NCBI GenBank assembly: GCA_963738405.1
Contig: CAVTWJ010000009.1
Span: 4,793 to 68,792, forward strand
Direction of reading: 5' to 3'
Length of the DNA: 64,000 nucleotides
Source of the DNA: a candidate division FCPU426 bacterium
Lineage (GTDB): Bacteria; Oederibacteriota; Muellerivitia; Muellerivitales; Muellerivitaceae
Part shown: piece by piece, positions 6,180 through 32,701 of the stretch
How positions within the stretch are numbered: position 1 is the first letter of the stretch
Layout: each line of letters begins with the position of its first letter
The notes under the pieces: model-generated
The model's input: only the letters and a program-made list of their open reading frames with translations
Told to the model about the DNA's origin: nothing
Databases searched by the model: none
Translations under genes and position numbers: made by a program

Positions 6180-6211
6180 TCAACCTGACCTACGCTCCCC
6201 AGCTGGTTAAT

Positions 6212-7285
6212 TTTTTCGGAGGCAACAGTTCCGCCTTCTTAAATTCTTACTATCAAATCAGCCCTGTGGTCTCCCTGTCAGTCCCCCTCTTCAAGGATTT
6301 CGGAGGCGCCCAAACCAATGCCGGGGTGAAGGCCGTCCAGTACGGCTTGGAATCGGCGCAAAAACTTTCGGCCTTCCAGCGCGAAGGCGTCCTCTATAAC
6401 GCCAAGGTCGCCTATTGGAACCTGGCCCTCACCCGGGAAGAAGTGGATATCCGCCAAGACACCCTGGACCGCAGCCAAAAGATATGGGACTGGACCAAAC
6501 GCCGGGTCGCGCGCAACCTGGCCGACCCCCCGGATGCCCTGCAGGCCGAGGCCTCGGTGCGGGAAGCAGAGCTTGATTTACAAACCGCCGAAAACCGCGA
6601 GCGCTCTGCCCGGCTGGCCTTTAACCGTTTCCGCAACGGCGCCACCGAGGATGTGCCCGAACAGCTGGAGGCCCTGGAAGATTCGCTGACCCTGGTGAAG
6701 GTGGATTTTCCCGCCGACTTACCCCAGCGCATCGACCTTCAGGCTGTGGAGGCCCAAACCCGCCAGGCTAAGGCCACCTACGACGAAACCTACCAGAACA
6801 TTTACCCCGACATCACGGCCATCGCCTCCTGGCGGGGCAACGGCTTGGATCCCAATTTTTCCAACGCCAACACCACCGCTTTCGGCACCGACCATCCCAC
6901 CTGGATGCTGGGGGCGCAGTTCAACCTGTCGCTGGATGTCTTCACGGCGCAGCGCACCGCCGAAGGCTACCAGAAGGAATACGAAAGCTCTCTCCTCACC
7001 CTCAAGGACAAAAAACTGGAAGTGGACCAGGACTGGCGGGATATCCAGGCCAGGCTGGTCGATGTGGATAAGCGCCTGGCCATGTCCACCGATATCGAGG
7101 CCCTTCAAAAGCAAAACGCGGACGAGGAAAAACAACAGCTCGACCTGGGACGAACCACCCAGTTCCAGCTTCTCTCCATCGAGAACCAATATTCGCTGGC
7201 GCGGCTTAGCCGGCTCTCATTGGTTGCTGAAAAGCTGGGGCTCCTGGCCCAGGCCCAATGGTGGCTTACCAAGGAAAAGGAATAG
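6212..7285 (+). pseudogene. TolC-family outer-membrane efflux protein, 5'-truncated (about the C-terminal 355 codons only)
   Basis: Coiled-coil/beta-barrel repeat typical of outer-membrane factor proteins (LQAEASVREAELDLQTAENRERSARL, LLSIENQYSLARL). No signal peptide or N-terminal repeat. The frame is open from the stop at about 6209-6211. Confidence 0.6.
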
Positions 7286-7303
7286 AAAAAAGAGGAAGTT
7301 GAC

Positions 7304-7732
7304 GTCATTGCGAGGAGCCATGCCGATAGGCATGGTTGGCGACGTGGCAATCTCAGGTTTTAGGGCTTGGGCCGGGATTAAACATGGATAAAAACGGATA
7401 CGTTTATATTCTTGCCAACAAAAACAACACGACCCTTTATACAGGGGTCACTAACGATCTAAAACGCAGAGTTTATGAACACAAAGAGAAGCTGTTTGAA
7501 GGTTTTTCGAAAAAGTTTAACTTAACGAAGTTGGTTTATTACGAAGTTTTGGACGGCATGTTGGAAGCCATTGAAAGAGAAAAACAGATTAAAAAATATT
7601 CCAGGATAAGGAAGATTGAGCTGATTCGGATTAAGAATGAAACGTGGAAGGATTTGTATGAAGGGTTATAGAAGCACAACTAAGATTGCAACGTCGCTAA
7701 ACGCACCTATCGGTGCAGCTCCTCGCAATGAC
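7304..7732. mobile_element. small palindromic element with about 50-bp terminal inverted repeats carrying a GIY-YIG nuclease gene (MITE-like family, copy A)
   Basis: Left arm GTCATTGCGAGGAGCCATGCCGATAGGCATGGTTGGCGACGTGGCAATCTCAGG (7304-7357). Right arm AGATTGCAACGTCGCTAAACGCACCTATCGGTGCAGCTCCTCGCAATGAC (7683-7732) is its reverse complement with few mismatches. Confidence 0.75.
7384..7671 (+). CDS. GIY-YIG nuclease superfamily protein (YhbQ/UPF0213-like)
   Basis: MDKNGYVYILANKNNTTLYTGVTNDLKRRVYEHK matches the GIY-YIG core (YVYIL...LYTG.T.DL.RR..EH). The ORF-track start at 7336 lies inside the left inverted repeat, so the ATG at 7384 is preferred. Confidence 0.75.
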   Translation: MDKNGYVYILANKNNTTLYTGVTNDLKRRVYEHKEKLFEGFSKKFNLTKLVYYEVLDGMLEAIEREKQIKKYSRIRKIELIRIKNETWKDLYEGL

Positions 7733-19135: not shown

Positions 19136-19789
19136 ATGGATGCAAGCAGGCTCGACGAGCGCCACGCCATGGTCAAAGATCAGCTTCAGGCCCGGGGTGT
19201 CCGCAACCCCTGGGTGCTCCAAGCGATGCTTGATATTCCCCGGCACCTTTTCGTATCTGAGGACCAAAGCCCCAAGGCCTACCAGGACGGCCCCCTTCCC
19301 ATCGGCTGTAACCAAACCATCAGCCAGCCCTATATCGTGGCTTCCATGATCGAACTGCTGGACCCCCAAAAGACCCACCGGGTGCTGGAAGTGGGCTTAG
19401 GGAGCGGCTATTTGGCCGCGGTTTTATCCGGTCTGGTGGGGGAAGTGTACGCGGTGGAGAGGGAATCCCAGTTGCTGGATCAGGCCAAGGCCCGGCTTGC
19501 CGCACTTGGCCTTCTAAACATCCAAACCCAAGAGGGGGATGGCAGTTTGGGTTGGAAGGAACAAGCTCCCTTTGATTCCATCCTGGTCTCGGCGGGCAGC
19601 CCTAAACTTTCCCAAAGCCTCCTGGCCCAGCTGAAGATTGGTGGGACTTTGCTGGCTCCCATTGGAAGCAGGGAGGAACAAAAGCTGGTGAGGGTTGTGA
19701 AAAGGTCCGAAACCCATTTCCAGGAGAAGGAACTGTACAAGGTGAAGTTTGTGCCCCTTATCGGCAAAGAGGGCTGGCCGCAAAGGTAA
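19136..19789 (+). CDS. pcm: protein-L-isoaspartate O-methyltransferase
   Basis: ISQPYIVASMIELL, VLEVGLGSGYLAAVL, IGGTLLAPIG motifs. RBS GGGAGG upstream. Confidence 0.9.
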   Translation: MDASRLDERHAMVKDQLQARGVRNPWVLQAMLDIPRHLFVSEDQSPKAYQDGPLPIGCNQTISQPYIVASMIELLDPQKTHRVLEVGLGSGYLAAVLSGLVGEVYAVERESQLLDQAKARLAALGLLNIQTQEGDGSLGWKEQAPFDSILVSAGSPKLSQSLLAQLKIGGTLLAPIGSREEQKLVRVVKRSETHFQEKELYKVKFVPLIGKEGWPQR

Positions 19790-19967
19790 TTACCCCGTCC
19801 GGGGTTGAAAGTGTTGAAAATTTGTCCGATTTTGCCCCCCTTTTTACCTCCCGCCGTAAAAAATCGGTAAAAGTTCACAAACGTATATTGCCCGGTTCTC
19901 AATTTTGAAAATAATATTTCTTGTTGGGGCCGTCTGGGCCAAACCCGTCCTTCGGTACCCTCAACCC

Positions 19968-20146
19968 GGTAAACAAAATCCACAAGTGGGTAAACAGTTC
20001 GGATAACCGGGTAAACAACAATCTCAACTAGGTAAACAAGGTCCGTAACCCGGTAAACAACCCACGCCAACCGGGTAAACAGGGACCCATAACTGGGTAA
20101 ACAGCCACTCTCAACCGGGTAAACAAGATTTCCCCGGGTAAACAAA
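19968..20146 (+). repeat. array of 9 direct repeats CGGGTAAACA at 21-22-bp spacing (iteron-like), preceded by an AT-rich segment (19895-19925)
   Basis: GGTAAACA occurrences start at 19968, 19989, 20010, 20031, 20052, 20074, 20096, 20118, 20137. Confidence 0.85.
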
Positions 20147-20156
20147 GGATTTTGCC

Positions 20157-22322
20157 GTGCCCCAACCTACGCCCGAATCAAAGGCCTGGATGGAAAGTTT
20201 GTCCGACCTGGCCGCCGACATTGAAAAACATCAAAAAGTTAAACATGCCGATCGGGCGGACGCCCTCGACCTTCACCCTACCAAGTTATCCTTCCTTTTG
20301 GCACTCCACCGGTGTTTGGACCCTGCGGCCCTTGCGAAAATCCGTCAGGCCGCCCAGGGGGATCACCCCTTTACCCTATCCTTTAAAAGCGCCAAGGCCT
20401 TGGCAGAGCTAGAGGGCCGGGTTCCTGATCTGTCAAAGGCGGTCCATGAGGCCTTAGACCAGATTCTGCCCCACCACCTAGCCACCCTGCAGATCAAAGC
20501 CCTGGTGGACCATATGGCCAGCGGCAAACCCGCCCAGGAATTTGACCCGACCCAGGTTAAAAAGACCCCCAAGGGTGGCCTTTCCCTCCAATCCCCAAGC
20601 CCTGACCCACCCCAAGAAGCCGAAGAGGATTCGGAGGATGAAGAACCGGAAGAAGAACCAACCAACCCAAAGGCCAAAAAGAAGACCTCTGCCCTGAGGT
20701 TTCAAACCGAGGGGCAAGGTTTGAGTGTACCCATTCCCAAAAAAGGAATGGGTAAGGCCAAAGGTCCCAACCTAAAACCCGCCAAGAAGGCCCTCAAAGG
20801 CGGGTTTAAAGACCTCCTCAAATACATTCACGAATATGTCAAAGCGGGCAGTAAGGCTGTGGCCGATTATTTCATTCCCTTGCACTCCCGTTCTAGCGGT
20901 AAGCGGGGAGGGGCCCAGTCCCTGCCCAACCTCTTCCGCTTTGCGGGCCATTGGGGGCTCTACTGGTTTTGCGTCCTGTTTATGTATGGCGGTAGCATCA
21001 GCTTCGTGGGGCACTTTATCCCCGGGGTGGGCCCCTGGATCGACGGCCTTCGGCTGGCTTTTTTCCACTTCATCCTTCACCTGCCTCTATGGCTCCTGGC
21101 ACAGGCGCTGGCCAAGCCCTGGGTGGTTCTAGTGCTAGGCGTTGCTCTGGTCTGGTGGATTCACAAGGAATTCCACGCCGGGTTGATGGCCACCCTCATC
21201 GTCGCGGCGGTTTTGGGCGCGGGATGGTATTTCCGGGGCTGGGTAATGGAACATCTACCAAATTTGACAAACCCATTTTCACCACCAAGTCTCCAAGACA
21301 CCAAGAACGACCAAGCCTTGGATAACAGCAAAACCCAAAGCCCCATAACCTCACCACCCAAGGCGGCCGGTTCCCCTATGGAACCGGCACAGCCAAGTCA
21401 TGGGCCTCGACCTGTCGTCTCGGCCCAGGCGCCCTCTGCCCGGAGGTCTCAAACCGACGGGCGTGACTTGAGTGCACCAATTCCGGAAAAAGGAATTGGT
21501 GTACAGGCCATGCCCAAAGAAGACCGGGCCTCTTTAGAAGCAGAAATCGCCGCCCTGCCCCGGCCCTGCCGGGTCAAAGATTTTCCCATCGAACCCGACC
21601 CCAATATAGGCGCCGAAATGGCAGGCCGCCGCCTCTCGGATATCCAGGACCCGGAAAAATATTCGCTTCGCGTGGGGCCCGATGAAAAAAAGATTACATC
21701 GGCGGTGGTGAATGGCTCCGGTTTCAACATGGAAATCCAAGGCGGCTTTTCGCTGGGGGACATCAACAGCGTCTTGGGCGATTCATCAAAAAAGGGAATG
21801 GCGTTTTATTGGGAAGACGTGCGGGCCATCCATTGTTGCGAGGTGGATGTGCTGGGGGATCACCCCCGTACCCTTTACCAATGCGGTTTGCTGATTGCGG
21901 GTTTGAAAAAGCCCATCACCGTGCAATGCGCAAGTGTTGAGGACTTGGGGCACCTGGTTTCGGGGCTGGAATTTTGGGTGCGAAACGCGCAGGGGGGCAA
22001 GAACGCGCCGATTGGCGGTTTGCCCTATCTGTACCAGGGCCTTCTGTTGGGCAGTGAAGGGGAAGTGATAGGTACTTGGGATAACAGCCCCATCGCGAAA
22101 ACGGGTTTTATGCCGGGCGATCATATATGGTCTGTGGATTCGAACCCCGGCATGCGCATGGGCAACGAGGAATTGCTTTCGAGTCTGCAAGACCTGTCGC
22201 CGGGCCCGCACGCGCTGTTTGTGGTGGACCCGGGTGAATGGGTGAAGGGAATGACGGGCCCAAGAAACAGAACCTGGGTTTTCAACCCGAAAAGAGTGAA
22301 GCTTCAATTGCTGGTTCAGTAA
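20157..22322 (+). CDS. large hypothetical protein, function unknown (acidic/Pro-rich linker, central 4-5 TM helices, internal SxPIPxKGxG repeat, possible C-terminal PDZ-like segment)
   Basis: 721-aa ORF with a GTG start directly after the repeat array (an alternative ATG lies at about 20186). Low-complexity EEDSEDEEPEEEP. Hydrophobic core LYWFCVLFMYGGSISFVGHF...VVLVLGVALVWWI. Confidence 0.5.
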   Translation: MPQPTPESKAWMESLSDLAADIEKHQKVKHADRADALDLHPTKLSFLLALHRCLDPAALAKIRQAAQGDHPFTLSFKSAKALAELEGRVPDLSKAVHEALDQILPHHLATLQIKALVDHMASGKPAQEFDPTQVKKTPKGGLSLQSPSPDPPQEAEEDSEDEEPEEEPTNPKAKKKTSALRFQTEGQGLSVPIPKKGMGKAKGPNLKPAKKALKGGFKDLLKYIHEYVKAGSKAVADYFIPLHSRSSGKRGGAQSLPNLFRFAGHWGLYWFCVLFMYGGSISFVGHFIPGVGPWIDGLRLAFFHFILHLPLWLLAQALAKPWVVLVLGVALVWWIHKEFHAGLMATLIVAAVLGAGWYFRGWVMEHLPNLTNPFSPPSLQDTKNDQALDNSKTQSPITSPPKAAGSPMEPAQPSHGPRPVVSAQAPSARRSQTDGRDLSAPIPEKGIGVQAMPKEDRASLEAEIAALPRPCRVKDFPIEPDPNIGAEMAGRRLSDIQDPEKYSLRVGPDEKKITSAVVNGSGFNMEIQGGFSLGDINSVLGDSSKKGMAFYWEDVRAIHCCEVDVLGDHPRTLYQCGLLIAGLKKPITVQCASVEDLGHLVSGLEFWVRNAQGGKNAPIGGLPYLYQGLLLGSEGEVIGTWDNSPIAKTGFMPGDHIWSVDSNPGMRMGNEELLSSLQDLSPGPHALFVVDPGEWVKGMTGPRNRTWVFNPKRVKLQLLVQ
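22158..22322 (+). repeat. direct repeat copy 1 (the 3' end of the 721-aa gene); copy 2 at 23100-23264
   Basis: About 165 bp with about 95% identity: atgggcaacgaggaattgctttcgag...caacccgaaaag. Confidence 0.85.
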
Positions 22323-22449: not shown

Positions 22450-22728
22450 ATGCGGTTTAAATTCGACAGGAACAAGAGCCATAAACTCCGCCGAAACCCC
22501 GCGCGCGGCATTGGTTTCGAGGAAGCCCAAAGAATATGGGAAAGCCCTTACTACCTCGACCAACGTTCCGACTTTCCGGAACAATGGAGGGCCATTGGCT
22601 GGGTGGGAGATAGGCTTTATTCCGTGATCTATGAAGAAAGAAGGGACCGGGAAGGGGATTACATCCACTTGGTCACTCTTTGGAAATCCACCAAGGAAGA
22701 AAGGAAATTATATGAAACCCATTCTTAA
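22450..22728 (+). CDS. brnT: BrnT-family toxin (DUF497) of a type II toxin-antitoxin pair
   Basis: MRFKFDRNKSHKLRRNPARGIGFEEAQRIW...YSVIYEERRDREGDYIHLVTLWKSTKEERKLY fits the BrnT pattern. Confidence 0.7.
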   Translation: MRFKFDRNKSHKLRRNPARGIGFEEAQRIWESPYYLDQRSDFPEQWRAIGWVGDRLYSVIYEERRDREGDYIHLVTLWKSTKEERKLYETHS

Positions 22729-22996
22729 GACAAAAAAAGTTCTGACGGCGGAACAAATAGCCCAAATGGCCGACAAGGGTAAGGATGTTTCCAAGCATTT
22801 CACGAACCATGGAAAAATGATGCCCGCCATCCGCCGGGTCAATGTGGATTTCGCCGAAAACATGCTGCGGGAATTGGACGGTTTGGTCCGCGAGATGAAC
22901 GTAAGCCGTCAGGCGGTCATCAAAGCTTTCCTGCGCCAGGGATTGGATCAGCACTACTTAGCCAAGAAAAAACGCCCGCATCCAACCGCTCATTAA
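22712..22996 (+). CDS. brnA: BrnA-like antitoxin (ribbon-helix-helix)
   Basis: Overlaps brnT by 17 nt. C-terminal RHH-like NVSRQAVIKAFLRQGLDQH. Confidence 0.6.
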   Translation: MKPILKTKKVLTAEQIAQMADKGKDVSKHFTNHGKMMPAIRRVNVDFAENMLRELDGLVREMNVSRQAVIKAFLRQGLDQHYLAKKKRPHPTAH

Positions 22997-23099
22997 CTCT
23001 TTAGTCCGATCCGGAAAACACAGGATGTAGTGGTGCCTTAAAAGGGGTGTATTAGAGTGGATCTGAAATTTTCTTTTTTCAGGCCTGACCCCTTTTACA

Positions 23100-23264
23100 C
23101 ATGGGCAACGAGGAATTGCTTTCGAGGCTGCAAGACCTGTCGCCGGGCCCGCACGCGCTGTTTGTGGTGGACCCGGGCGAATGGGTGAAGGGAATGACGG
23201 GCCCAAGAAACAGAACCTGGGTCTTCAACCCGAAAAGGACGAAGCTTGAATTGGATGTGCCGTA
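23100..23264 (+). repeat. direct repeat copy 2 (duplicated 3' end of the 721-aa gene; remnant ORF MGNEELLSRLQDLSPGPHALFVVDPGEWVKGMTGPRNRTWVFNPKRTKLELDVP)
   Basis: Aligned by eye to 22158-22322. Confidence 0.85.
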
Positions 23265-23284
23265 AAAGAGGTATATAAAGGGAA

Positions 23285-24283
23285 ATGAATTTGGATTACG
23301 TAGTCTGTAATTTTCTTTTTTCAGATCTGCCCCCTTTTACGATAATTAACGAATCGTTTGAACTTAAGGATATAAATTCGATGTTTTTAAAACCGAAAAC
23401 TTTAAAAATAAAACTTTACGAAGTGCCAACAACCAGCGAAAAAAATGTTATTGCAAAACTCCGAAAGGAGCTATTCCCAAAAGCTAATAAAGAAATGTTT
23501 TGGGGCATTGTCGCTGAATGGTATTCCTGGCTCAAACCAAACTGCAATCAAATTTCTATTTCAGACGCAGGCTATAAAACCAAATACGGGAAGGTTAATG
23601 TCAAAGAAATCGCTATTGCTCTTAACCGCCATCCAATAATTCTTCATGACAGTCAGTATCTCGAAACAACTTTTGTTCTATTACCTTGCTACCGATTTCT
23701 TTTTGACAACACCCTTGAGCCGTTGAGAATTTCGAAAGAACTTTTCGAAGCATTGAAAGAAATTAAAGAAAGAGATGCAAAAGAACATACTTCTATTTCA
23801 TATAAGGCTGACGAGCTGACCAAACGACTTGGTATGAAAGTAGATGAACCTTTCGAGGAAAAAATCCGTATGTTGTGCGATATAGGATTATTACACTGCT
23901 CTTCTTGGTCTTCAGGTTCCTCATTATTTGAAAATGCAACACTCAACATCAGCATTAAACCAACGGAAGAATATGAAGAGTGGTATAGAAATTTAATTTC
24001 TAATTTTGAGCGAGACGTAAATGACAACAAGAGAGAATTCTGGAAAAAAAACAAATTTTTACGTTGGCTCTCAGGGAAGGAATCCCTGACTGATAATGTT
24101 CTTGTTCCTGGTGAAATTTCCATTCAGGCTCAAAAACCAAGAATTTTACAAATTTCTATCCTTATACTTTTTATCCCACTCCTGGGCACAACCATCTATT
24201 TTGCTTCTCAAGCTAATTGGCCAGCCTGTGGAATATTTTTAACAGCAATATTAGCTTTATTGAATCTCGCCAAAGGGATGTAG
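23285..24283 (+). CDS. hypothetical protein with C-terminal double TM anchor (low-GC cassette, gene A)
   Basis: GC about 34%. C-terminal ILQISILILFIPLLGTTIYFASQANWPACGIFLTAILALLNL. Confidence 0.5.
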   Translation: MNLDYVVCNFLFSDLPPFTIINESFELKDINSMFLKPKTLKIKLYEVPTTSEKNVIAKLRKELFPKANKEMFWGIVAEWYSWLKPNCNQISISDAGYKTKYGKVNVKEIAIALNRHPIILHDSQYLETTFVLLPCYRFLFDNTLEPLRISKELFEALKEIKERDAKEHTSISYKADELTKRLGMKVDEPFEEKIRMLCDIGLLHCSSWSSGSSLFENATLNISIKPTEEYEEWYRNLISNFERDVNDNKREFWKKNKFLRWLSGKESLTDNVLVPGEISIQAQKPRILQISILILFIPLLGTTIYFASQANWPACGIFLTAILALLNLAKGM

Positions 24284-24285
24284 AA

Positions 24286-25500
24286 ATGTCGAATTCCGAA
24301 ATTCCAATCTCCAAAAATTATTTCTCGGCCAAAGGCAAAAATGCAGAAAGTTTTTTATACGAGCTTTCTAAGAAATCTTTTTTTGTAGATTGGTGTTATT
24401 TAAACCCTCTGTTACCAGACGGAAAAGAATTATGTGATCTGTTAATTGTGTTTGACGAAATTGCAATTATTTGGCAAATAAAGGATTTGAAGCCCAATAA
24501 AGACGGAGGAATTAAAGAGTCCGATTTTGAAAAAAACATAAAACAACTGTCCGGCGCACGCCGTACCCTTTTCGACCTTAAAACTCCAATTAAGTTGAAT
24601 AATCCAAGACGAGGGGAAGAAATATTCAACCCTGAAAAAATCAAAGAAATATATTTAATTGCAGTTTTCATCGGTGATTTTCAATCAAGCATTCCTTTAA
24701 TTGATTCAATCAAAAAATATTTGGTCCATATTTTCATAATGCCTTTTTTAGAAATAGTTTTGAACGAGCTAGATACCATTACTGATTTTATAGAATACTT
24801 AAGGTGCAAAGAAAAATTCATTACTTCTTTTAATCAACGGATAATTACTCTTTCCGGCGAAGAAGATTTTCTCGGTCTTTATCTTTTAAATGATAGAAAT
24901 TTAGACAAATTCAATAATGCTATTTTATTAACCGTTGCGGATGATATTTGGAAAGGATTTTCCACTTCTGAAAATTACAACCGCCGAGAAAAGGCTGATA
25001 AGAAAAGTTATTTTTGGGACAATCTGATTAATAGAGCCCATGAAGCAGAAACGGGAGAATACGAAATAATAGCTCGTGAATTGGCTCGTTTAAATCGCTT
25101 TGAAAGAAGATTGGCAAGTAACAGTTTTATTGAAGCCCATTTGTCGCTAAAGAATGATCCGAATAAATTATTCAAACGAACAATAGCAATTAAAGGCGTT
25201 TCTTATTGTTTTTTATTCGCTGGTGAAGCTGAAAAAGATATCGAGGAACGAAAAAATCTCTTGTTTCATACTTGTATGATTGTACGGATGCTTAAGCCTG
25301 AAAACAAAACCGTAATCGGCATTTCTACAAGTGCTGCGTATGGCCCAACATTTGGATATGAGTTTTTTTATATAAATATTCCAGAACTTTCTCAAAGTGA
25401 TATTGATGAAATCAAACAATACCAAAATAAGTTAGGGATCTACACCAAACCAGAAGAACACTTCAAGCAAGAATGGGAATATCCAAAAGATAAATCTTAA
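24286..25500 (+). CDS. NERD (nuclease-related, PD-(D/E)xK-like) domain protein (gene B)
   Basis: GKNAESFLYELSKKSFFVDWCYLNPLLPDGKELCDLLIVFDEIAIIWQIKDLK resembles the NERD core (G..E..v..L.kl...v..n.......EiDhlvi...gifvIEvKn). Start MSNSEIP at 24286 preferred over 24217. Confidence 0.45.
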   Translation: MSNSEIPISKNYFSAKGKNAESFLYELSKKSFFVDWCYLNPLLPDGKELCDLLIVFDEIAIIWQIKDLKPNKDGGIKESDFEKNIKQLSGARRTLFDLKTPIKLNNPRRGEEIFNPEKIKEIYLIAVFIGDFQSSIPLIDSIKKYLVHIFIMPFLEIVLNELDTITDFIEYLRCKEKFITSFNQRIITLSGEEDFLGLYLLNDRNLDKFNNAILLTVADDIWKGFSTSENYNRREKADKKSYFWDNLINRAHEAETGEYEIIARELARLNRFERRLASNSFIEAHLSLKNDPNKLFKRTIAIKGVSYCFLFAGEAEKDIEERKNLLFHTCMIVRMLKPENKTVIGISTSAAYGPTFGYEFFYINIPELSQSDIDEIKQYQNKLGIYTKPEEHFKQEWEYPKDKS

Positions 25501-25514
25501 GCTCTAAAAACACC

Positions 25515-26297
25515 ATGGAGGCTATTAAAATGCCATCCGAAATCCACACAGAAAATTCCGTAAAAGATAAATATAAAATCATGTATAAAAATTCTTACGC
25601 CTCAACTTTGCGAGACATTGCTGATTACGATTACATTTCGGCTCGACTTCTTCTTAGAAACCATTGCAAAGACCAATTTTTATATCTTGCCTACCAATCT
25701 CTAGAAAAGTACATGAAGTCCATTTTACTTTTTCATCTCCGAAAAAACAAAATCGGACATGATATTACAAAACTATTTGGTGAAATTTGTAAAATCACTG
25801 AGTTTGAGATCGGAAATAATCCAAGAATAAAGACCTTTATTGAAAGGTTTGATAATACTTTCGGGGACCCAAGATATTTATCGCTAGGATTTGCCGGTGA
25901 TTATAAGTATCTATTCGAACTAGATTATGCAGTTTGGAAACTTAGGATTTATTGTCAGCCTGAGAGAAACAGAATCTCTTTATTGGAAAAGGCGGACGAA
26001 AAAATATTGAAAAAATCATTCTTGAAAGGGACATTCTTACTTTGGTCGGGAGTATTAGAAGATGTTCATAAGGAAAAGAAAAAGGGCTTATATCAGAGTT
26101 TGGTTTGGTTTAATTCTTACTTTGGTCGTTTCAAAGGGAATGAAATGTCTCTCATGGGATATTGGTTTAAAAATTCTCCGTTGTTTTCAGGCAATGAAGA
26201 AAGACGCCTCTTAACTTACGAATCCATAAAGGACTATGTTCACATACCCCCGAAAATAAAAAACTACTTTGAAGATTTGAAAAAAAGGAACTCCTGA
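25515..26297 (+). CDS. HEPN-like protein (Rx5H motif) (gene C)
   Basis: DYDYISARLLLRN...FLYLAYQSLEKYMKSILLFHLRKNKIGHDITKLF. The R-x5-H and helical pattern resemble HEPN. Confidence 0.4.
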   Translation: MEAIKMPSEIHTENSVKDKYKIMYKNSYASTLRDIADYDYISARLLLRNHCKDQFLYLAYQSLEKYMKSILLFHLRKNKIGHDITKLFGEICKITEFEIGNNPRIKTFIERFDNTFGDPRYLSLGFAGDYKYLFELDYAVWKLRIYCQPERNRISLLEKADEKILKKSFLKGTFLLWSGVLEDVHKEKKKGLYQSLVWFNSYFGRFKGNEMSLMGYWFKNSPLFSGNEERRLLTYESIKDYVHIPPKIKNYFEDLKKRNS

Positions 26298-26465
26298 ACT
26301 GGTATGGAAGAAACGGACGGGGTCAGGCATGAAAAAAGAAAATTAAAGTTAATCGCACAACAATTACTAACATCACTTATATCCACGTCCTGAATCAGTT
26401 CGAACAAGACCTTAAGTTGTGTCTCCGTTAGTGGTAAAAGTCGCTTTTAATTAAATGGATAAATA

Positions 26466-27869
26466 ATGGAACCAAATCCTATCGAACAGCCATCATCCGA
26501 ACGGCAGGTTTACTATCCTGAAACGCTAAAGGGTTCAAAAGCCCTTTGGCCCTTAATTTTATTTGCTTCATTTGTTCCTTTGGGGTTCCTTTTTATATTT
26601 CTAAGCATTTATTTCCATACGGGAAGGCTTTATTTCCCCTGGTGGTCACCACGAATCCGTTCTTTGTATGTATTTTGGGTTTTTAATTTACTGGTTGTCT
26701 TTTTGAGGTTGAAAAGTCAAAAAGCTCATGCCGAAACATCACCGGAGGGTCTTGCGCAAGTGAATGCTTTTGGGAAACAGGTCGATATTCCCTGGGATGA
26801 AATCGGCCAGGTTTTGGTGGATGAGGGCGGTATTGTTCGGGTTAAGGACAAAACCGGTAAAAAAACCATCAACCTTTCGAAGTTTTATAAAAATTTTGAC
26901 CAACTGAAGAAAAGGGTTTTAGAAGAATACGAAACAAAAAGAATTCCCCAGGCGAAAGAAGCCGCCCTTTATGGCATGGCCTCGAAAGTCGGCATTATTT
27001 ATTTTTGGGGTGGGTTATTTATTCTGATTCTTGGTCTGACATCGGTAGTAGGCGGTGTTATGACCCTCATGGGTTATGGTGACACGAAAGTTAATCCATT
27101 GGTCAATGAGATCATCTTTTTAGTCTTCGGCCCAGCCTTCATTGCCCTTGCGGTTTACTGTCTTTGGTGGGGTGTGAGAGTTAAATACAGCAAAATCGAA
27201 ATTACTCAATCGGGAATCGCCAGGCTAGAGAAAGCTGGAAACCGGGTTTTTATTAAATGGGAGGATGTAGCCCGGTTGACCAAAAGGGAACGGATGAAAG
27301 ACATAGTGGTTACCAGCTTGGACCCATCTAAAAAAATCATGGTGGATTATCAATTTGAAGGGTTCGAGCAGATTCGAGACAGAGTTTTTATGGAATTCGA
27401 GAAAAGGCTGTCCTTGCCAGTGGTGGCCACGACCTACGGCCCAAAATGGATTCATCCCAACTTTGTCTTGATGGGATTTATGGGAGCTTTTATTGGACTA
27501 TTGTGTTTCGCCCGATTCAGCCAAAAAACCACAGGCGATACGAGCGGGTTTAACTTCTTAATTATCCTTTTAGTGGGTTTTTATTTGTTCATTCTTTTCG
27601 CGGAAACAAAAGCGGTGAAGGCCCTGACCTTAAACGGAAATGAAATTATCCTTCGCAAACTTTTTGGAAAGAAAATTCTACAAGGACGTGAAGTGGCGGA
27701 CATTTCCATGGATAGTATCGCGGGCCAACACGGGACTTTTTATTACCGAATTCAACTGACTGCCGAAGATGGGAAGAAATACATCTTCGCCAATGATCTT
27801 GGAACAGAAGTGGGTGTTTATCCGGTCCTCAAGAAATGGCTGGAGAAACAAAAAGGCGGACGAGGCTAG
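26466..27869 (+). CDS. YdbT-like membrane protein with three tandem [2 TM + bacterial PH (bPH_2)-like] modules (gene D)
   Basis: Three repeats of a hydrophobic hairpin followed by a soluble segment of about 90 aa (e.g. VDIPWDEIGQVLVDEGGIVRVKDKTGKK; VFIKWEDVARLTKRERMKDIVVT; LTLNGNEIILRKLFGKKILQGREVADISMD). Confidence 0.5.
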   Translation: MEPNPIEQPSSERQVYYPETLKGSKALWPLILFASFVPLGFLFIFLSIYFHTGRLYFPWWSPRIRSLYVFWVFNLLVVFLRLKSQKAHAETSPEGLAQVNAFGKQVDIPWDEIGQVLVDEGGIVRVKDKTGKKTINLSKFYKNFDQLKKRVLEEYETKRIPQAKEAALYGMASKVGIIYFWGGLFILILGLTSVVGGVMTLMGYGDTKVNPLVNEIIFLVFGPAFIALAVYCLWWGVRVKYSKIEITQSGIARLEKAGNRVFIKWEDVARLTKRERMKDIVVTSLDPSKKIMVDYQFEGFEQIRDRVFMEFEKRLSLPVVATTYGPKWIHPNFVLMGFMGAFIGLLCFARFSQKTTGDTSGFNFLIILLVGFYLFILFAETKAVKALTLNGNEIILRKLFGKKILQGREVADISMDSIAGQHGTFYYRIQLTAEDGKKYIFANDLGTEVGVYPVLKKWLEKQKGGRG

Positions 27870-28019
27870 GCCTGAAAAAATCTGTTTTACGACGTCCATT
27901 CAACTAAATCCCTTTTGAGTTAAGCCCTAATAAAAATAATGACTATGTCAATTTGGCAGGCTTTTTCCTACACTTCCCTTCGTTAGCAGGTGTTTTGAGG
28001 CGAAGAAAAACAGGGGAGA

Positions 28020-28976
28020 GTGAACATGAAGCATTTGAGCCAATTGGCAGGGATTGTTTTGTTACTTACCAGTTTTGTGGCGGTTTCCAATGCGGATACG
28101 CTTTTTGAACCCGTGAATTCCAACCAATCTTCCGCTTACCAACGGGACCCATCCAACTTATTGCAGTTCGCCAAGGCCGTTAAACCCACAAAGCACACCG
28201 AAGACGCCGCCGACGAAACCATCAACTTGTTCGATGGTTCGGGAACCTTCGTACAGCTTTACACTGGCTACGACTATTCCATCATGGGCGACATCAGCAA
28301 CGGTTTTAATAACCTCAAGCCGGCCTTCCTCAACGGCAGCCCAAGCCTATCGGCCGCGGGTGGGAGTTTTCAAAACAGCGGTATCCGCACGGGGGTGCTT
28401 TACGGCATCCACTTGGATTCCTCCAGCAGTTTTGCCTTGGATATCAGCAACGTCACGACCGTGCCTAGCAGTTTGACGTTTTCTACCGGGACGACGCAGG
28501 TGGCCAGCTTCAACCTGTTGCCTTCACTTTTTAGCGCCTCCATCGACTATTCCCTCAACCTCATCCAGGGACCGGGAAGCCGGACCTACGTGGCCCTGGG
28601 GGCCGGCTATTACCATGGAGCCGTGGCTTATTACGGCAGTGGGGGCGGGTACGGCAGTGGAACCTTCACGGGCGACAATATCGGTGGGACCTTGGGGATT
28701 GGGGAAGAGATCGCCCTAGGTTCGAATTTTGGGTTCAATTTTTCCTTGAACGGCCGTTACGCTTACTTCAGCCGGGCCAGTTCTAGCAATGCTGCCGGCT
28801 ACGCTGGCGGATCGGGCACCATTTCCCTGGCGCTCATCCAGCAAGGCCCGACCGGCCGGTTCCTGGTGCCGATTGCGAACAACCTGATCGATGCGAATCC
28901 CAACATCGTTTCCTACGCCGGGATGGACTTTTCGGGCATCGACGCCAACGCGGCGGTGGAATACCACTTTTTCTAA
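28020..28976 (+). CDS. outer-membrane beta-barrel protein (Gly/Ser/Asn-rich; C-terminal aromatic residue)
   Basis: Signal peptide MNMKHLSQLAGIVLLLTSFVAVSNA. Terminal ...NAAVEYHFF. Confidence 0.55.
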   Translation: MNMKHLSQLAGIVLLLTSFVAVSNADTLFEPVNSNQSSAYQRDPSNLLQFAKAVKPTKHTEDAADETINLFDGSGTFVQLYTGYDYSIMGDISNGFNNLKPAFLNGSPSLSAAGGSFQNSGIRTGVLYGIHLDSSSSFALDISNVTTVPSSLTFSTGTTQVASFNLLPSLFSASIDYSLNLIQGPGSRTYVALGAGYYHGAVAYYGSGGGYGSGTFTGDNIGGTLGIGEEIALGSNFGFNFSLNGRYAYFSRASSSNAAGYAGGSGTISLALIQQGPTGRFLVPIANNLIDANPNIVSYAGMDFSGIDANAAVEYHFF

Positions 28977-29020: not shown

Positions 29021-29095
29021 GCGGTCCCCGGCACCACTTCCCAATGGGTGGAGCCGGGGTGCATCCAGATCAAAGGTAGGGCCATCCAATCCCCT
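29021..29095. repeat. about 75-bp repeat, copy 1, derived from the 3' coding region of the PA14-fusion gene; copy 2 at 30591-30662
   Basis: Identical 37-bp core ACTTCCCAATGGGTGGAGCCGGGGTGCATCCAGATCA at 29036-29072 and 30603-30639, with similar flanks. Confidence 0.8.
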
Positions 29096-29204: not shown

Positions 29205-29573
29205 ATGTCCACGCCGCTTTTAGATCTGCCAAAAGACCATCTTTCGTTATTTAAAAAAAACAAACCCGACTATGAGAACATCGTGGATTTCCTACATCTC
29301 AAAAGGGTGGATGTGGCAAAGGCAACGGGGCTGGCGACCTCTTCAGTCCGTTTTGATGGGAAAATACCTCAGGAATTATCCGAGATACTTCTTCAATGGG
29401 CGGTTTTGTTCAATAAAGTAGCGGAATTTTTTAAGGGCGATGTTTATAAAACGAATCTTTGGTTCAATGTTCCGAATCCTTTGTTGGGAAATATAACTCC
29501 AAAAGATATGATCCGGCTGGGCCGCTATAAAAAACTTTATAGTTTTGTTTCACAGGCTATCGAAGACAATTAA
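29205..29573 (+). CDS. Xre/MbcA/ParS-like antitoxin (DUF2384 toxin-binding domain)
   Basis: C-terminal NLWFNVPNPLLGNITPKDMIRLGRYKKL matches the DUF2384 pattern (A..W...PN..LGG.TPL....T). Confidence 0.6.
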   Translation: MSTPLLDLPKDHLSLFKKNKPDYENIVDFLHLKRVDVAKATGLATSSVRFDGKIPQELSEILLQWAVLFNKVAEFFKGDVYKTNLWFNVPNPLLGNITPKDMIRLGRYKKLYSFVSQAIEDN

Positions 29574-29587
29574 AACAGGTATTTAAG

Positions 29588-30505
29588 ATGGATAAGAGCC
29601 GGCGAAAAAAGAAACTTGATTCCCGCGCCTTATCCTTTCTCCTCCCGACCTATTTACCTCTGGATCAATTCAATGTTCTTGACGTGCAGCGTTGGCAATC
29701 CGGCCAACAAAAGCTCAAGGATTTTTATGGGCAATGGTATTTCGAATTAGCCAGGCAACGTTCCCGGGCGAAAGAATCAATCAATCGCTCACTTCAGAAG
29801 GCAAGCACACCCTATTCTTTCTCCCCTTGTTATAGGGTATTTCGCTTTAAATGGGCCTTGGGCCCGCTTTCTTCCAAAGGAAGCCTTAAGGTTCCGGGTG
29901 GACGTTTCAATATCGGTGACATCGACGAGAGCTTATTTCAGAAATTTCCCGCCCTTTATTTGGCTGAAGACGCAGATACGGCTCTCTGTGAAATGATAGG
30001 ACCGAGACGAAATCCTTTGGAAACATTCAACCAATTTGATTTGGCTTCGATTAATGAGAAATCATTATCAATTGTGGCAACTTATGGGGAACTTGAATCG
30101 GTGGTGGATTTGACCAATCGGGAATGCCTGAAAGAATTTATTGATGTAGTTAAAACTTTTACCGTTTCCAAAAGTCTTGAAAAATTGGCCCAGGAAGTGC
30201 GGATCAATCTAAATGGCGGCACGGTTAATAGCGTGGATCTTCTTATGGAAACCCTCATGAATCCTAATTGGAGACAATTTCCAATGCATGTCGATGTACC
30301 CGCAAATTCTCAAATATTTGGACAGCTTGTTTGGGACGCAGGAATCGAAGGGGTTGTCTATTCCTCGAAATACACTAATAAAAAGTGTTTTGCGATTTTC
30401 CCGAATAACCTCAAGGGCGGCGATTCATTTGTGGAAATTATGGATGATGTTCCCAAAGGCGCAATTAAGCGTTTAGACTCCAAAACGTGGGAAAAACTTA
30501 TTTAA
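29588..30505 (+). CDS. RES-domain toxin (NAD-targeting toxin family) with N-terminal extension
   Basis: CYRVFRFKW, GGRFNIGD, FPALYLAEDADTALCEM, VVYSSKYTN supply RES-domain R/E/S positions. The gene is 15 nt downstream of the antitoxin. Confidence 0.6.
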   Translation: MDKSRRKKKLDSRALSFLLPTYLPLDQFNVLDVQRWQSGQQKLKDFYGQWYFELARQRSRAKESINRSLQKASTPYSFSPCYRVFRFKWALGPLSSKGSLKVPGGRFNIGDIDESLFQKFPALYLAEDADTALCEMIGPRRNPLETFNQFDLASINEKSLSIVATYGELESVVDLTNRECLKEFIDVVKTFTVSKSLEKLAQEVRINLNGGTVNSVDLLMETLMNPNWRQFPMHVDVPANSQIFGQLVWDAGIEGVVYSSKYTNKKCFAIFPNNLKGGDSFVEIMDDVPKGAIKRLDSKTWEKLI

Positions 30506-30556: not shown

Positions 30557-32701
30557 TCAAAGCTTACGTTGGTTGATCTTCCCGAAAGTAGAGGCTGGCA
30601 CAACTTCCCAATGGGTGGAGCCGGGGTGCATCCAGATCAGATTCACGGCCATCGAATCCCCGCCCGTCTTAATAAATTCCACTTTGATCGAATGTTCTCC
30701 CTTATGAAGGTTCAGTTTTTTATCTGAAGGCATTCCCGCTCCATAAATCTTTTTCCCATCCAAGAAAATAGTCCCTTGGTCCTGGGTCAGGCATTCAAAT
30801 TGATATTCGCCTGAAGCTGGAATTTCCAAATGGCCCTTCCAGCGGATGCTGAAGGGGGGCGGGTTGGTGAAGGGAAAGTCCTGCTTGCTGGTGAAATTCA
30901 AAAGAGGGTCGCTCTTTACCGTCACGGGAGTCCCCAAAAAGAAGCTGGTGTTCCAATAGGTTCCCGTCAGGCCCTTATCCCAACCCTTGAAAGAATTGAC
31001 CGTTAGATTGGATATGGCGTAGCAGGAGACAAGGGTTCGTCCATCCGGGCTTTGCAAAGCATCCTCTGTGCCTCCAGGAAAAATAGTTTTGAGAAGGTCC
31101 AAAACCCCGGCCTTGCCCTCCTCCGTGAAAAAAACCGCGTCCTTGTCCTTAGCTAAATTTCCGGCGGCCAGATCGTTGAGATTGAAACGAACGATGGCCG
31201 CCCCCGAGGCATCGGCGAGGAACCGGGTGGTATGGTTTTCGTAGTAAAGGGGCGGGAGATAAAAGCGGTAGCGGCCCGGATATAGTTTTTCCAGGTTTTC
31301 AACGCCCCGGCCGATGTAAGTCTGCTCTAACCCAAATGAGGTCTGGCAGGCGGGGTCTTGGTCCATCTTCTCGAAATAGATCAGGTAGTTTTGAACCGCG
31401 ATGGGGGCAATCAGGGCAAAACCCAAAAAAGGAATAAGCCATTTCGTTTTATTGGAAAGGGCTAAGCGCCGCCAGAATTCTTCCATCGTGGTTCCGGCGA
31501 AATAGGCGGCAAAGACCGAGAGAATCCAAAGCCGGTTGGAATTGGCGGGGTCATTCGCCAGCGTCCCTACGGCGAGGAAGATCAGAAAACCCGCCAGGGG
31601 ATAAAACCCGCCCCTTTCTTTGCGCCGCAACCAAGCCAGGCCCAGCCCCAAAACAAAACAGACCCCGGTGATGTCATCCAGCATCCGGGTTCCCGGCAGA
31701 TTATGGCGGGGGTTGGGGTCGCCTTGGCGGTTGAACATCAAAATATTCGAAACCGCCTGGTCCCAGAGGGGTTTCAAACTGTGCTGGGCTTTGATGTTGT
31801 TGCCGATGAAGATGTCGCTCTCCCGGTTTCCCGCCGTGTGGTTCAAGACCAAATAGGCCAAGAGGGGCAGGGCCAAAAGCAAAAAGAGCCCCGCCCAAAG
31901 AGCCAGAGCCCTGGCCTTCTTTGATCCCCTGCGAAACTCGTAAAACCCGAAGAGCAAAAAGAGAAGGGGAACCACTTTGAAGATTTGGTAGGTATAGAGC
32001 CCCAGTCCCAAAAAGAGCGCCGAAGGGTAAAAAGAAGATTTCTGGTTCTTCATGACCCAATGGAGCCAAAAGGCCAGCCCGGCGAAAAGAAAAAAGCCGG
32101 TTTGGCAGGAAGGATACCCGGTGCGGGGCTCAATCCAGTTCCACCGCATGAGCCCCAATAATAGAAACGAAAGGAGGGCGGTTCGGGGGCCCGCTAACTG
32201 CCGAATGGCCCAATAGATGAAAGGGAAAGAAGCCATGGCGAGGGTTACGAAGAACAGGTGGAAGGACAGGTAGGAAGAACCGAAAAGCCAAAACCAACCC
32301 GCCAGGAAATAGGGAATCAGCAGTTCGGGAACCGGGTAGCTGTAAATGTCGTAAAAGGGCCGCCAGCCCTTCAAAACCCAAAGGCCGTATTCCCCTTCCA
32401 GCCCCTGGTCGGTGTGCATCCCATCGGGCATGGAATCCAGTTGATAGACCCGAAGGAAGAGGGCGATCAGGAAAATAAAAACAAAGGCAACCGTTTCGAC
32501 ATCAAGAGAAAGGGGCTCGAAAGCCGGGGAGCCGATCTGGGGGTCCCGAAACAACAGCCAAAGGGCCAGGCCGTAAAAAAATAATCCGGGAGCCAAGGTC
32601 CAGGGTGCGCCGGACTGGGCCATCCAGAACTGCCCCAAGGCCGCCGATAGAAGCGGCGCCCAACATTTCATCCAGGAAGGGCGTGTGGTTGAAGGGGGCA
32701 A
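30557..32701 (-). CDS. polytopic membrane glycosyltransferase-like protein (GT39/ArnT/PMT-like, about 12 TM) fused to a C-terminal PA14 domain
   Basis: N-terminal two-thirds is multi-TM. C-terminus GTYWNTSFFLGTPV...SIRWKGHLEIPASGEYQFECLTQDQGTIFLDGKKIY is PA14-like. Confidence 0.55.
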   Translation of the reverse strand: MPPSTTRPSWMKCWAPLLSAALGQFWMAQSGAPWTLAPGLFFYGLALWLLFRDPQIGSPAFEPLSLDVETVAFVFIFLIALFLRVYQLDSMPDGMHTDQGLEGEYGLWVLKGWRPFYDIYSYPVPELLIPYFLAGWFWLFGSSYLSFHLFFVTLAMASFPFIYWAIRQLAGPRTALLSFLLLGLMRWNWIEPRTGYPSCQTGFFLFAGLAFWLHWVMKNQKSSFYPSALFLGLGLYTYQIFKVVPLLFLLFGFYEFRRGSKKARALALWAGLFLLLALPLLAYLVLNHTAGNRESDIFIGNNIKAQHSLKPLWDQAVSNILMFNRQGDPNPRHNLPGTRMLDDITGVCFVLGLGLAWLRRKERGGFYPLAGFLIFLAVGTLANDPANSNRLWILSVFAAYFAGTTMEEFWRRLALSNKTKWLIPFLGFALIAPIAVQNYLIYFEKMDQDPACQTSFGLEQTYIGRGVENLEKLYPGRYRFYLPPLYYENHTTRFLADASGAAIVRFNLNDLAAGNLAKDKDAVFFTEEGKAGVLDLLKTIFPGGTEDALQSPDGRTLVSCYAISNLTVNSFKGWDKGLTGTYWNTSFFLGTPVTVKSDPLLNFTSKQDFPFTNPPPFSIRWKGHLEIPASGEYQFECLTQDQGTIFLDGKKIYGAGMPSDKKLNLHKGEHSIKVEFIKTGGDSMAVNLIWMHPGSTHWEVVPASTFGKINQRKL

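Follow-up and report, generated by a model that had tools for sequence, protein, structure and literature searches.

A low-GC gene block encoding a nuclease-fold protein and a HEPN protein at a probable insertion hotspot of a candidate division FCPU426 bacterium

Four plus-strand genes and their reading frames

The stretch of DNA analysed here (the window, 64,000 nucleotides (nt) of contig CAVTWJ010000009.1 from a candidate division FCPU426 bacterium) carries four consecutive genes, A to D, that an earlier note on this DNA had proposed to form one undescribed defence or abortive-infection system. All four open reading frames (ORFs) lie on the plus strand where that note had placed them. Our comparisons with related loci indicate that they are not conserved together, and we read them as modules that probably came to lie side by side at an insertion hotspot rather than as parts of one co-evolved system.

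23285-24283, plus strand: gene A, 332 amino acids (aa), predicted membrane-anchored protein
24286-25500, plus strand: gene B, 404 aa, start codon ATG at 24286, predicted nuclease-fold protein
25515-26297, plus strand: gene C, 260 aa, predicted HEPN protein
26466-27869, plus strand: gene D, 467 aa, predicted membrane protein with three repeated modules

Genes B and C are separated by 14 nt and genes C and D by 168 nt, both as previously described. The overlap of about 67 nt that had been reported between A and B proved false, the true separation being 2 nt. The longest-ORF call of gene B begins at an upstream TTG (24217), but homologues of B start, by alignment, at the position equivalent to ATG 24286. 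The same ATG is used in an independent gene call on a 4779-bp contig of public run ERR11718638, which matches window positions 23193-27971 at 100% identity and holds the same four genes. Because the homologues and the independent call agree on this start, we regard the overlap as an artefact of ORF calling, which also rules it out as a device for translational coupling. Open reading frames of 332-467 codons are not expected by chance in DNA of 33-43% GC, and B and C have large families of homologues. Both motifs quoted in the earlier note, the core of gene B and the HLRKNKIGH segment of gene C, are present in the sequence.

Protein families of the four genes

Gene B has no match in NCBIfam or PADLOC above cut-off, single-sequence and profile searches of the PDB returned nothing useful, and its sole PHROG match is phrog_18195, a family of unknown function. 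Its own family is large, comprising more than 1050 cluster representatives at E <= 1e-3, of which the best 120 are 44-50% identical to B over the full length. Mean column identity in a 28-sequence alignment is 63%, and a subset of the family carries an N-terminal SEC-C zinc motif. The AlphaFold2 (AF2) model built on this alignment (pLDDT 84.9, pTM 0.85) displays an alpha-beta-beta-beta-alpha-beta restriction-endonuclease-like fold. Fold comparison of the model gave the highest scores to FokI (9.6), Hna (8.7), Can2 and HindIII (8.3 each) and Shedu SduA (8.1), followed by NucS, McrC, Cas4-like proteins and CdiA-CT toxins. Foldseek gave weak matches, all above E = 0.001, in which the PD-(D/E)xK superfamily was represented by Cas4 SSO0001, the R2 endonuclease domain and McrC; low-probability matches to the DHH family were also returned.

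In the modeled core, E21 is positioned on helix 18-30, D51 immediately precedes strand 52-56, and Q64-I-K66 falls within strand 59-67. When relatives from viral contigs with only 23-29% identity were added to the alignment, E21, E48, C50, D51, K66 and H148 stayed invariant, as did the block E161-L-D-T-I-x-D-F168. Position 64 is glutamine in the close family and serine in distant relatives, and it is never acidic. An SxK variant of the motif, in which the acidic residue comes from elsewhere, is known in Cfr10I/NgoMIV-type enzymes, and the invariant E21 and E48 could supply the missing acidic group in gene B. The fold supports the prediction that B is a PD-(D/E)xK-fold nuclease. The nuclease-like core that had been proposed for B is in line with this prediction, but its assignment to the NERD family is not borne out: B and NERD (PF08378) both belong to the PD-(D/E)xK superfamily and have in common a short D...hhhh(E/Q)xK pattern across successive strands, yet no Pfam-A family, NERD included, matches B in hmmscan even at E <= 0.1.

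The closest known kinds are the single-gene PD-(D/E)xK defence nucleases (Shedu SduA) and the catalytic domains of Type IIS and Type IIP restriction endonucleases (FokI, R.BspD6I and HindIII). Gene B shows no sequence-profile match to Shedu (DUF4263). It differs from both kinds by a helix with the strongly conserved sequence ELDTIxDF and by an alpha/beta domain at the C-terminus, which are lacking there as far as compared, and by the replacement of the second acidic motif residue with Q or S; no methyltransferase partner appeared in our neighbour surveys. A further point of comparison is Rugutis, a validated lactococcal single-gene abortive-infection system of about 360 aa with an N-terminal SEC-C motif (pUCCL633_059, BioProject PRJNA1086404; PMC11381338, PMC13064643), which resembles the B family in being solitary and, for the SEC-C-bearing subset, in this motif. 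No Lactococcus plasmid was among the matches listed in a tblastn search with B at E <= 10.

We scanned one genome per species and obtained 44 loci with a B homologue of 34-48% identity. The bacterial ones belong to Chloroflexota, Dehalococcoidia, Acidobacteriota, Planctomycetota, Desulfobacterota, Thermodesulfovibrionia, Patescibacteria, Zixibacteria, Actinomycetes and Gammaproteobacteria, and the archaeal ones to Micrarchaeota, Woesearchaeota, Altiarchaeota and Methanomicrobiales. In tblastn searches that reached up to 8 kb to either side, none of the 44 loci showed a relative of A, C or D, and all-against-all clustering of the neighbouring ORFs gave no recurrent family except B itself. By Pfam, the neighbours are mostly housekeeping genes (ABC transporters, asparagine and NAD synthases, glycosyltransferases), with a few restriction-modification or PDC matches. 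The GC content of B is below that of its flanks in 25 of 36 genomes (mean difference -0.07), and at 35 other loci B is without flanking inverted repeats. In two metagenome-assembled genomes of Acidobacteriaceae (L039, 8001-9186; L042, 5849-7005) the B homologue was matched in two pieces in different frames, which could reflect a frameshift, a pseudogene or an assembly error.

More distant relatives of B reside on mobile elements. IMG/VR contigs carry relatives of 22-29% identity, and relatives of 22-28% identity, annotated as 'SEC-C metal-binding domain-containing protein', occur on 114 plasmids that are mostly conjugative, from Klebsiella, Citrobacter and Escherichia; the phage GenBank set gave no match. 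On Klebsiella plasmid pKpnB3_1 (NZ_CP030728.1), a 490-aa relative at 5962-7434 lies between a DUF5906 replication gene and capsid genes, in a cluster that starts with integrase and AlpA genes and continues past the B relative with capsid, portal and terminase genes. We interpret this plasmid-borne cluster as a probable capsid-forming phage satellite, and the B relative occupies a position at which satellites of this kind are known to gather defence genes. A relative on a Xanthomonas plasmid follows an integrase gene, and on widespread IncN resistance plasmids such as pKPC_FCF/3SP (NC_021660.2, 4962-6436) a distant B-like gene sits between repA and a recombinase gene; in NC_021660.2 it is split into two coding sequences. 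From this distribution the family appears to spread horizontally as a single gene, and the plasmid and satellite settings support a putative role for it in conflicts between mobile elements and their hosts.

Gene C matches the Pfam HEPN family PF05168 with 38.4 bits (cut-off 22) over residues 31-122, as do 36 of 40 aligned members of its own family, and we consider its assignment as a HEPN protein sound at the level of sequence profiles. An exhaustive phmmer search returned 515 representatives, mostly full-length proteins of 230-270 aa with 27-42% identity; a word-index search returned only C itself, and there was no NCBIfam match above cut-off and no PHROG or PADLOC match. Invariant in the family are D37, Y40, R44, E64, Y66, K68, H82 and R120, together with Y121, D137, R144, G179, L196, W198 and N200. 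The HEPN-like Rx5H motif to which the earlier note had drawn attention is present as R76-x5-H82, but of its two residues only H82 is invariant, the arginine column being K, R or another residue in homologues. In a comparison of the C profile with the PDB, the EKY...GH segment aligned to the HEPN protein 1wol at a marginal E of 0.04, and PDB searches with C, by single sequence or by profile, yielded nothing else of use. RNase competence of C is plausible on these features. In common with HEPN proteins, including the HEPN-MNT toxins, C has the profile match and an invariant histidine at the start of helix 3. It differs from them in being twice the usual length, with a conserved but unassigned C-terminal half (W198, N200), and in having no MNT partner beside it here or in 88 related loci.

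These 88 neighbourhoods (80 from metagenomes and 8 from viral contigs) contain no relative of A, B or D at any locus, and no recurrent neighbour or fixed partner emerged among them. The neighbours are heterogeneous, yet many belong to defence or to mobile elements; those identified, mostly at one locus each, include DUF4917, restriction-modification genes of the Eco57I/MmeI type, GmrSD, AAA_13, SieB, SEFIR and TIR proteins, a reverse transcriptase, an inactive restriction endonuclease domain and a phage capsid gene. PADLOC assigned some of the neighbours to Type IIG restriction-modification, PDC-S06, PDC-S21, defence-type reverse transcriptases and bSEFIR, counted as raw occurrences. Small ORFs beside C homologues were considered as a conserved antitoxin and rejected, as they do not cluster, many overlap the HEPN gene, and only 29 of 78 neighbours on the upstream side and 19 of 68 on the downstream side are in tight same-strand linkage.

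Gene A consists of a soluble N-terminal region of about 285 residues followed by two predicted C-terminal transmembrane (TM) helices (285-310 and 314-332). This agrees with the hairpin in a single-sequence AF2 model (pLDDT 44.6), of which only residues 285-331 are confident, and upholds the earlier description of A as anchored by two TM segments. A word-index search of 5.8 billion proteins found no homologue of A other than itself, and A matches nothing in Pfam, NCBIfam, PHROG or PADLOC. Gene D has six TM segments arranged in three pairs (25-82, 170-237 and 331-385), each followed by about 80 soluble residues, and its modules resemble one another (module 1 against 2, E = 8.7e-7; module 1 against 3, E = 0.025). 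Bacillus YdbT, a triple bPH_2 protein to which D had been likened, shares the three tandem modules of two TM segments and a small soluble domain; this part of the comparison holds, but bPH_2 (PF03703) matches neither the whole of D nor its separate modules, and the likeness rests on architecture. Sub-threshold hits were to bPH_6 (whole protein, E = 8e-4, 19.8 bits, cut-off 22; module 1 by itself, E = 0.17), STM3941_fam (30.9 bits, cut-off 40) and DUF2207_C, and from these a PH-like assignment of D would be weak. Neither A nor D has a match in the plasmid collection, and D has neither a PHROG match nor relatives in the phage or viral-contig collections.

Base composition, repeats and flanking modules

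Base composition divides the four genes, as the following values of GC content and of GC content at third codon positions (GC3) indicate.

Gene A: GC 0.356, GC3 0.327
Gene B: GC 0.328, GC3 0.286
Gene C: GC 0.338, GC3 0.352
Gene D: GC 0.430, GC3 0.455
Neighbouring host genes: GC 0.54-0.56, GC3 0.64-0.70

The GC of about 34% that had been ascribed to the whole cassette applies to A-C but not to D, whose intermediate value resembles that of the Xre-RES pair downstream (0.40-0.43). The flanks, put earlier at about 57%, measure 0.54-0.56, and the window as a whole has a GC of 0.533. The step in GC nevertheless supports the foreign origin that the earlier note had proposed. Upon examining the edges of the low-GC block, we observed a 26-nt repeat, AATTTTCTTTTTTCAGGCCTGACCCC, which has three matches in the window with at most 3 mismatches (at 23067 and 23309 on the plus strand and at 26319 on the minus strand) against 0 expected.

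23067-23092, plus strand: repeat copy 1, just 5' of the duplicated gene end D1b (below), 96% complementary to 26319-26344
23305-23334, plus strand: repeat copy 2, left inverted-repeat arm, inside codons 7-17 of gene A
26319-26348, minus strand: repeat copy 3, right inverted-repeat arm, in the C-D spacer, beginning 22 nt past the stop codon of gene C

The left and right arms (30 nt, 83% complementary) enclose the low-GC A-C block and leave gene D outside. Because A, B and C share their composition, are spaced by only 2 and 14 nt, and are bracketed by these inverted repeats of 26-30 nt, they probably arrived together from a low-GC donor, and they are probably co-transcribed. By contrast, we set gene D apart because its GC and GC3 differ and it lies outside the repeats. 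A weak partial copy of the repeat follows the stop codon of gene D at about 27866-27885 (13-nt exact core, E = 0.27). The repeat was also considered as an intrinsic terminator and rejected, since it holds only a 10-nt palindrome without a loop. We saw no target-site duplication beside the arms, no integrase or transposase gene in the A-C block or within about 10 kb, and no tRNA gene in the window as a possible site of integration; a search of viral contigs did not find the repeat, and scans of the region for Rfam families, promoters and terminators were uninformative.

The block lies between two host genes that converge on it and two small modules that resemble toxin-antitoxin (TA) pairs, each of the latter bracketed by direct repeats.

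20157-22322, plus strand: host gene of 721 aa, no Pfam match
22157-22322, plus strand: direct repeat D1a, the final 166 nt of the 721-aa gene including its stop codon
22450-22728, plus strand: BrnT-like toxin gene
22709-22996, plus strand: RHH antitoxin-like gene
23100-23265, plus strand: direct repeat D1b, second copy, displaced, of the 721-aa gene's 3' end
28020-28976: 318-aa ORF with a signal-peptide-like N-terminus and the C-terminus ...YHFF, GC 0.55 as in the host
29030-29094, plus strand: direct repeat D3a, copy of the 3' end of the 714-aa gene on the minus strand
29205-29573, plus strand: Xre-like antitoxin gene
29588-30505, plus strand: RES toxin gene
30597-30661, plus strand: direct repeat D3b, within the 3' end of the 714-aa gene
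30557-32701, minus strand: PMT_2/PA14 gene of 714 aa, glycosyltransferase-like, convergent with the 721-aa gene

D1a and D1b are 93% identical over 166 nt (97.8% across the first 138 nt by blastn) and bracket the BrnT/BrnA-like pair exactly, while repeat copies 1 and 2, in direct orientation, sit on either side of D1b. A 54-codon remnant ORF is retained in D1b. The BrnT-like protein covers the full Pfam BrnT_toxin profile (1-77 of 77; E = 2.8e-7) at 31.2 bits, under the cut-off of 34.5, whereas its partner exceeds the cut-off for RHH_1 (23.3 against 20.5 bits); the two genes overlap by 20 nt and have a GC of 0.48-0.49. The upstream module had been named BrnTA, and on these scores we call it BrnT/BrnA-like. 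Downstream, D3a and D3b (89% identity over 65 nt; 43 nt at 97.7% by blastn) bracket the pair that had been named Xre-RES. Here the toxin matches RES PF08808 at 47.1 bits (cut-off 23.2), but the C-terminal domain of the antitoxin stays below threshold (Xre_MbcA_ParS_C, 19.5 bits, E = 1e-3, cut-off 24.5). The two genes are 14 nt apart and display the arrangement of a RES toxin preceded by an Xre/MbcA/ParS-type antitoxin.

The presence of duplicated gene ends at both modules suggests a common insertion mechanism that places TA modules beside the ends of genes. A single crossover of a circular intermediate that carries a gene end would yield such duplicated ends. The 721-aa protein, a single-member cluster in the protein collection, contains a low-complexity stretch rich in acidic residues and lysine, central hydrophobic segments and a C-terminal domain, the end of which is the part found duplicated. 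The 318-aa ORF separates gene D from Xre-RES; it has no Pfam match, its exact sequence is absent from a collection of 15 billion proteins, and it may encode an outer-membrane beta-barrel protein.

Independent modules or a single system

With a probability of about 0.6, we read the locus as a set of independent modules (BrnT/A, A-B-C, D and Xre-RES) accreted at a hotspot in the manner of a defence island. The site between the convergent 721-aa gene (ending at 22322) and 714-aa gene (ending at 30557) would gather unrelated foreign modules by serial independent insertions, for which the duplication mechanism outlined above is a candidate. The 'cassette' would then be a juxtaposition rather than a co-evolved system, because unrelated modules had accumulated at the same place. 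This reading replaces the four-gene defence system of the earlier note, whose genes are not co-conserved: none of the 44 B loci and none of the 88 C loci includes any of the others, and a lack of co-conservation was among the findings that the note itself had named as speaking against a system. Within the preferred reading, gene B would most likely be a DNA endonuclease that depends on Mg2+ and acts alone, and gene C is most likely a solitary HEPN protein of the RNase-toxin or abortive-infection-effector type, its catalytic competence being uncertain. Genes A and D would be membrane proteins tied to B or C by adjacency in one genome alone.

Several points weigh against this reading. The close spacing of A, B and C looks like that of an operon of functionally linked genes, and a lineage-unique, operon-like A-B-C could still be functional. 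With no homologue of A detected, comparisons between genomes speak neither for nor against a tie between A and its neighbours. The neighbourhood screens worked purely by sequence similarity (tblastn with E limits of 1e-3 to 1e-2 and blastp with limits of 1e-4 to 1e-5) and would miss analogous partners that are not homologous. The independence of gene D rests on its composition and its position outside the repeats. Finally, the nuclease motif of B is without a second acidic residue, the C family varies at the HEPN arginine, and the nuclease and RNase activities of the two proteins are predicted ones.

The operon-like features lend themselves to a different explanation, in which A-B-C, perhaps together with D, forms a true multi-gene system for defence or abortive infection that is specific to this lineage and was recently assembled from solitary parts. 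Sensing or execution would fall to its membrane proteins, with the nuclease and the HEPN RNase as effectors. The single strand, the two short spacers, the shared composition of A-C, the position between TA modules and the nuclease-fold and HEPN domains typical of effectors all accord with such a system, as does the lack of a known system that matches; the earlier note had expected PADLOC to be blank for a novel system, and indeed no model of PADLOC-DB v2 matches A, B, C or D at E <= 0.1. Yet no pair of the genes co-occurs in the 44 and 88 loci, neither the B nor the C family has a fixed partner, A lacks a detected homologue, and D departs from the others in GC and in its place outside the inverted repeats. 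We consider such a system very unlikely, and it seems just as much of a long shot that A-B-C is a new abortive-infection system caught at its origin, bounded by the inverted repeats, in which membrane-anchored A would couple the B nuclease to the C HEPN protein. If true, a four-gene system would amount to a new defence architecture, which the evidence does not support.

The inverted repeats that border the low-GC block, none being expected by chance, could instead mark A-B-C as cargo of a non-autonomous element that B and C serve through addiction, competitor exclusion or homing, rather than protecting the host from phage. The occurrence of B relatives on plasmids and in a satellite-like region, and the foreign composition of B in most genomes, would suit this explanation. 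We nonetheless regard it as unlikely, given that the block and its surroundings (about 10 kb) hold no transposase or integrase gene, that no target-site duplication is visible, that the left arm falls inside the ORF of gene A, and that the repeat is missing from viral contigs and inverted repeats from the B genes of 35 other loci. A role of B, C or both outside conflict appears quite unlikely. B would then be a housekeeping, repair or inactive nuclease and C a ligand-binding or adaptor HEPN protein without catalysis; the Pfam HEPN family does include non-catalytic members. The mostly metabolic and transport genes around B in 44 genomes, Q or S at its position 64 and the variable R76 of C point that way. 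They are countered by the patchy spread of B over bacterial and archaeal phyla at 40-50% identity and with a GC below that of the host, which fits horizontal rather than vertical housekeeping inheritance, by the plasmid and satellite settings of its relatives, by the several defence genes among the neighbours of C, and by the invariance of E21, E48, D51 and K66 in B and of H82, E64, K68 and R120 in C.

In the preferred reading of independent modules, the interest of the locus shifts from the cassette to its parts. Gene B represents a large, uncharacterised family of solitary PD-(D/E)xK-fold proteins that has no Pfam model, is strongly conserved and is scattered over very distant phyla, including the small-genome lineages Patescibacteria and DPANN, with remote relatives on clinical IncN plasmids and in the phage-satellite-like region; judged from its sequences, this family alone could be an unrecognised, widespread single-gene nuclease directed against mobile genetic elements. 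Gene C represents uncharacterised HEPN proteins of about 250 aa, solitary among varied defence genes. Both are plausible candidates for single-gene conflict, defence or toxin functions. The locus also illustrates how TA modules insert beside the 3' ends of genes and duplicate them.

Directly 5' of the start of the 721-aa gene (20157), we also noticed an array at 19963-20145 of about eight units containing GGGTAAACA, with a period of about 22 nt. The array could be an operator or iteron-like, and a 221-aa minus-strand ORF that runs across it (19480-20145) is probably spurious.

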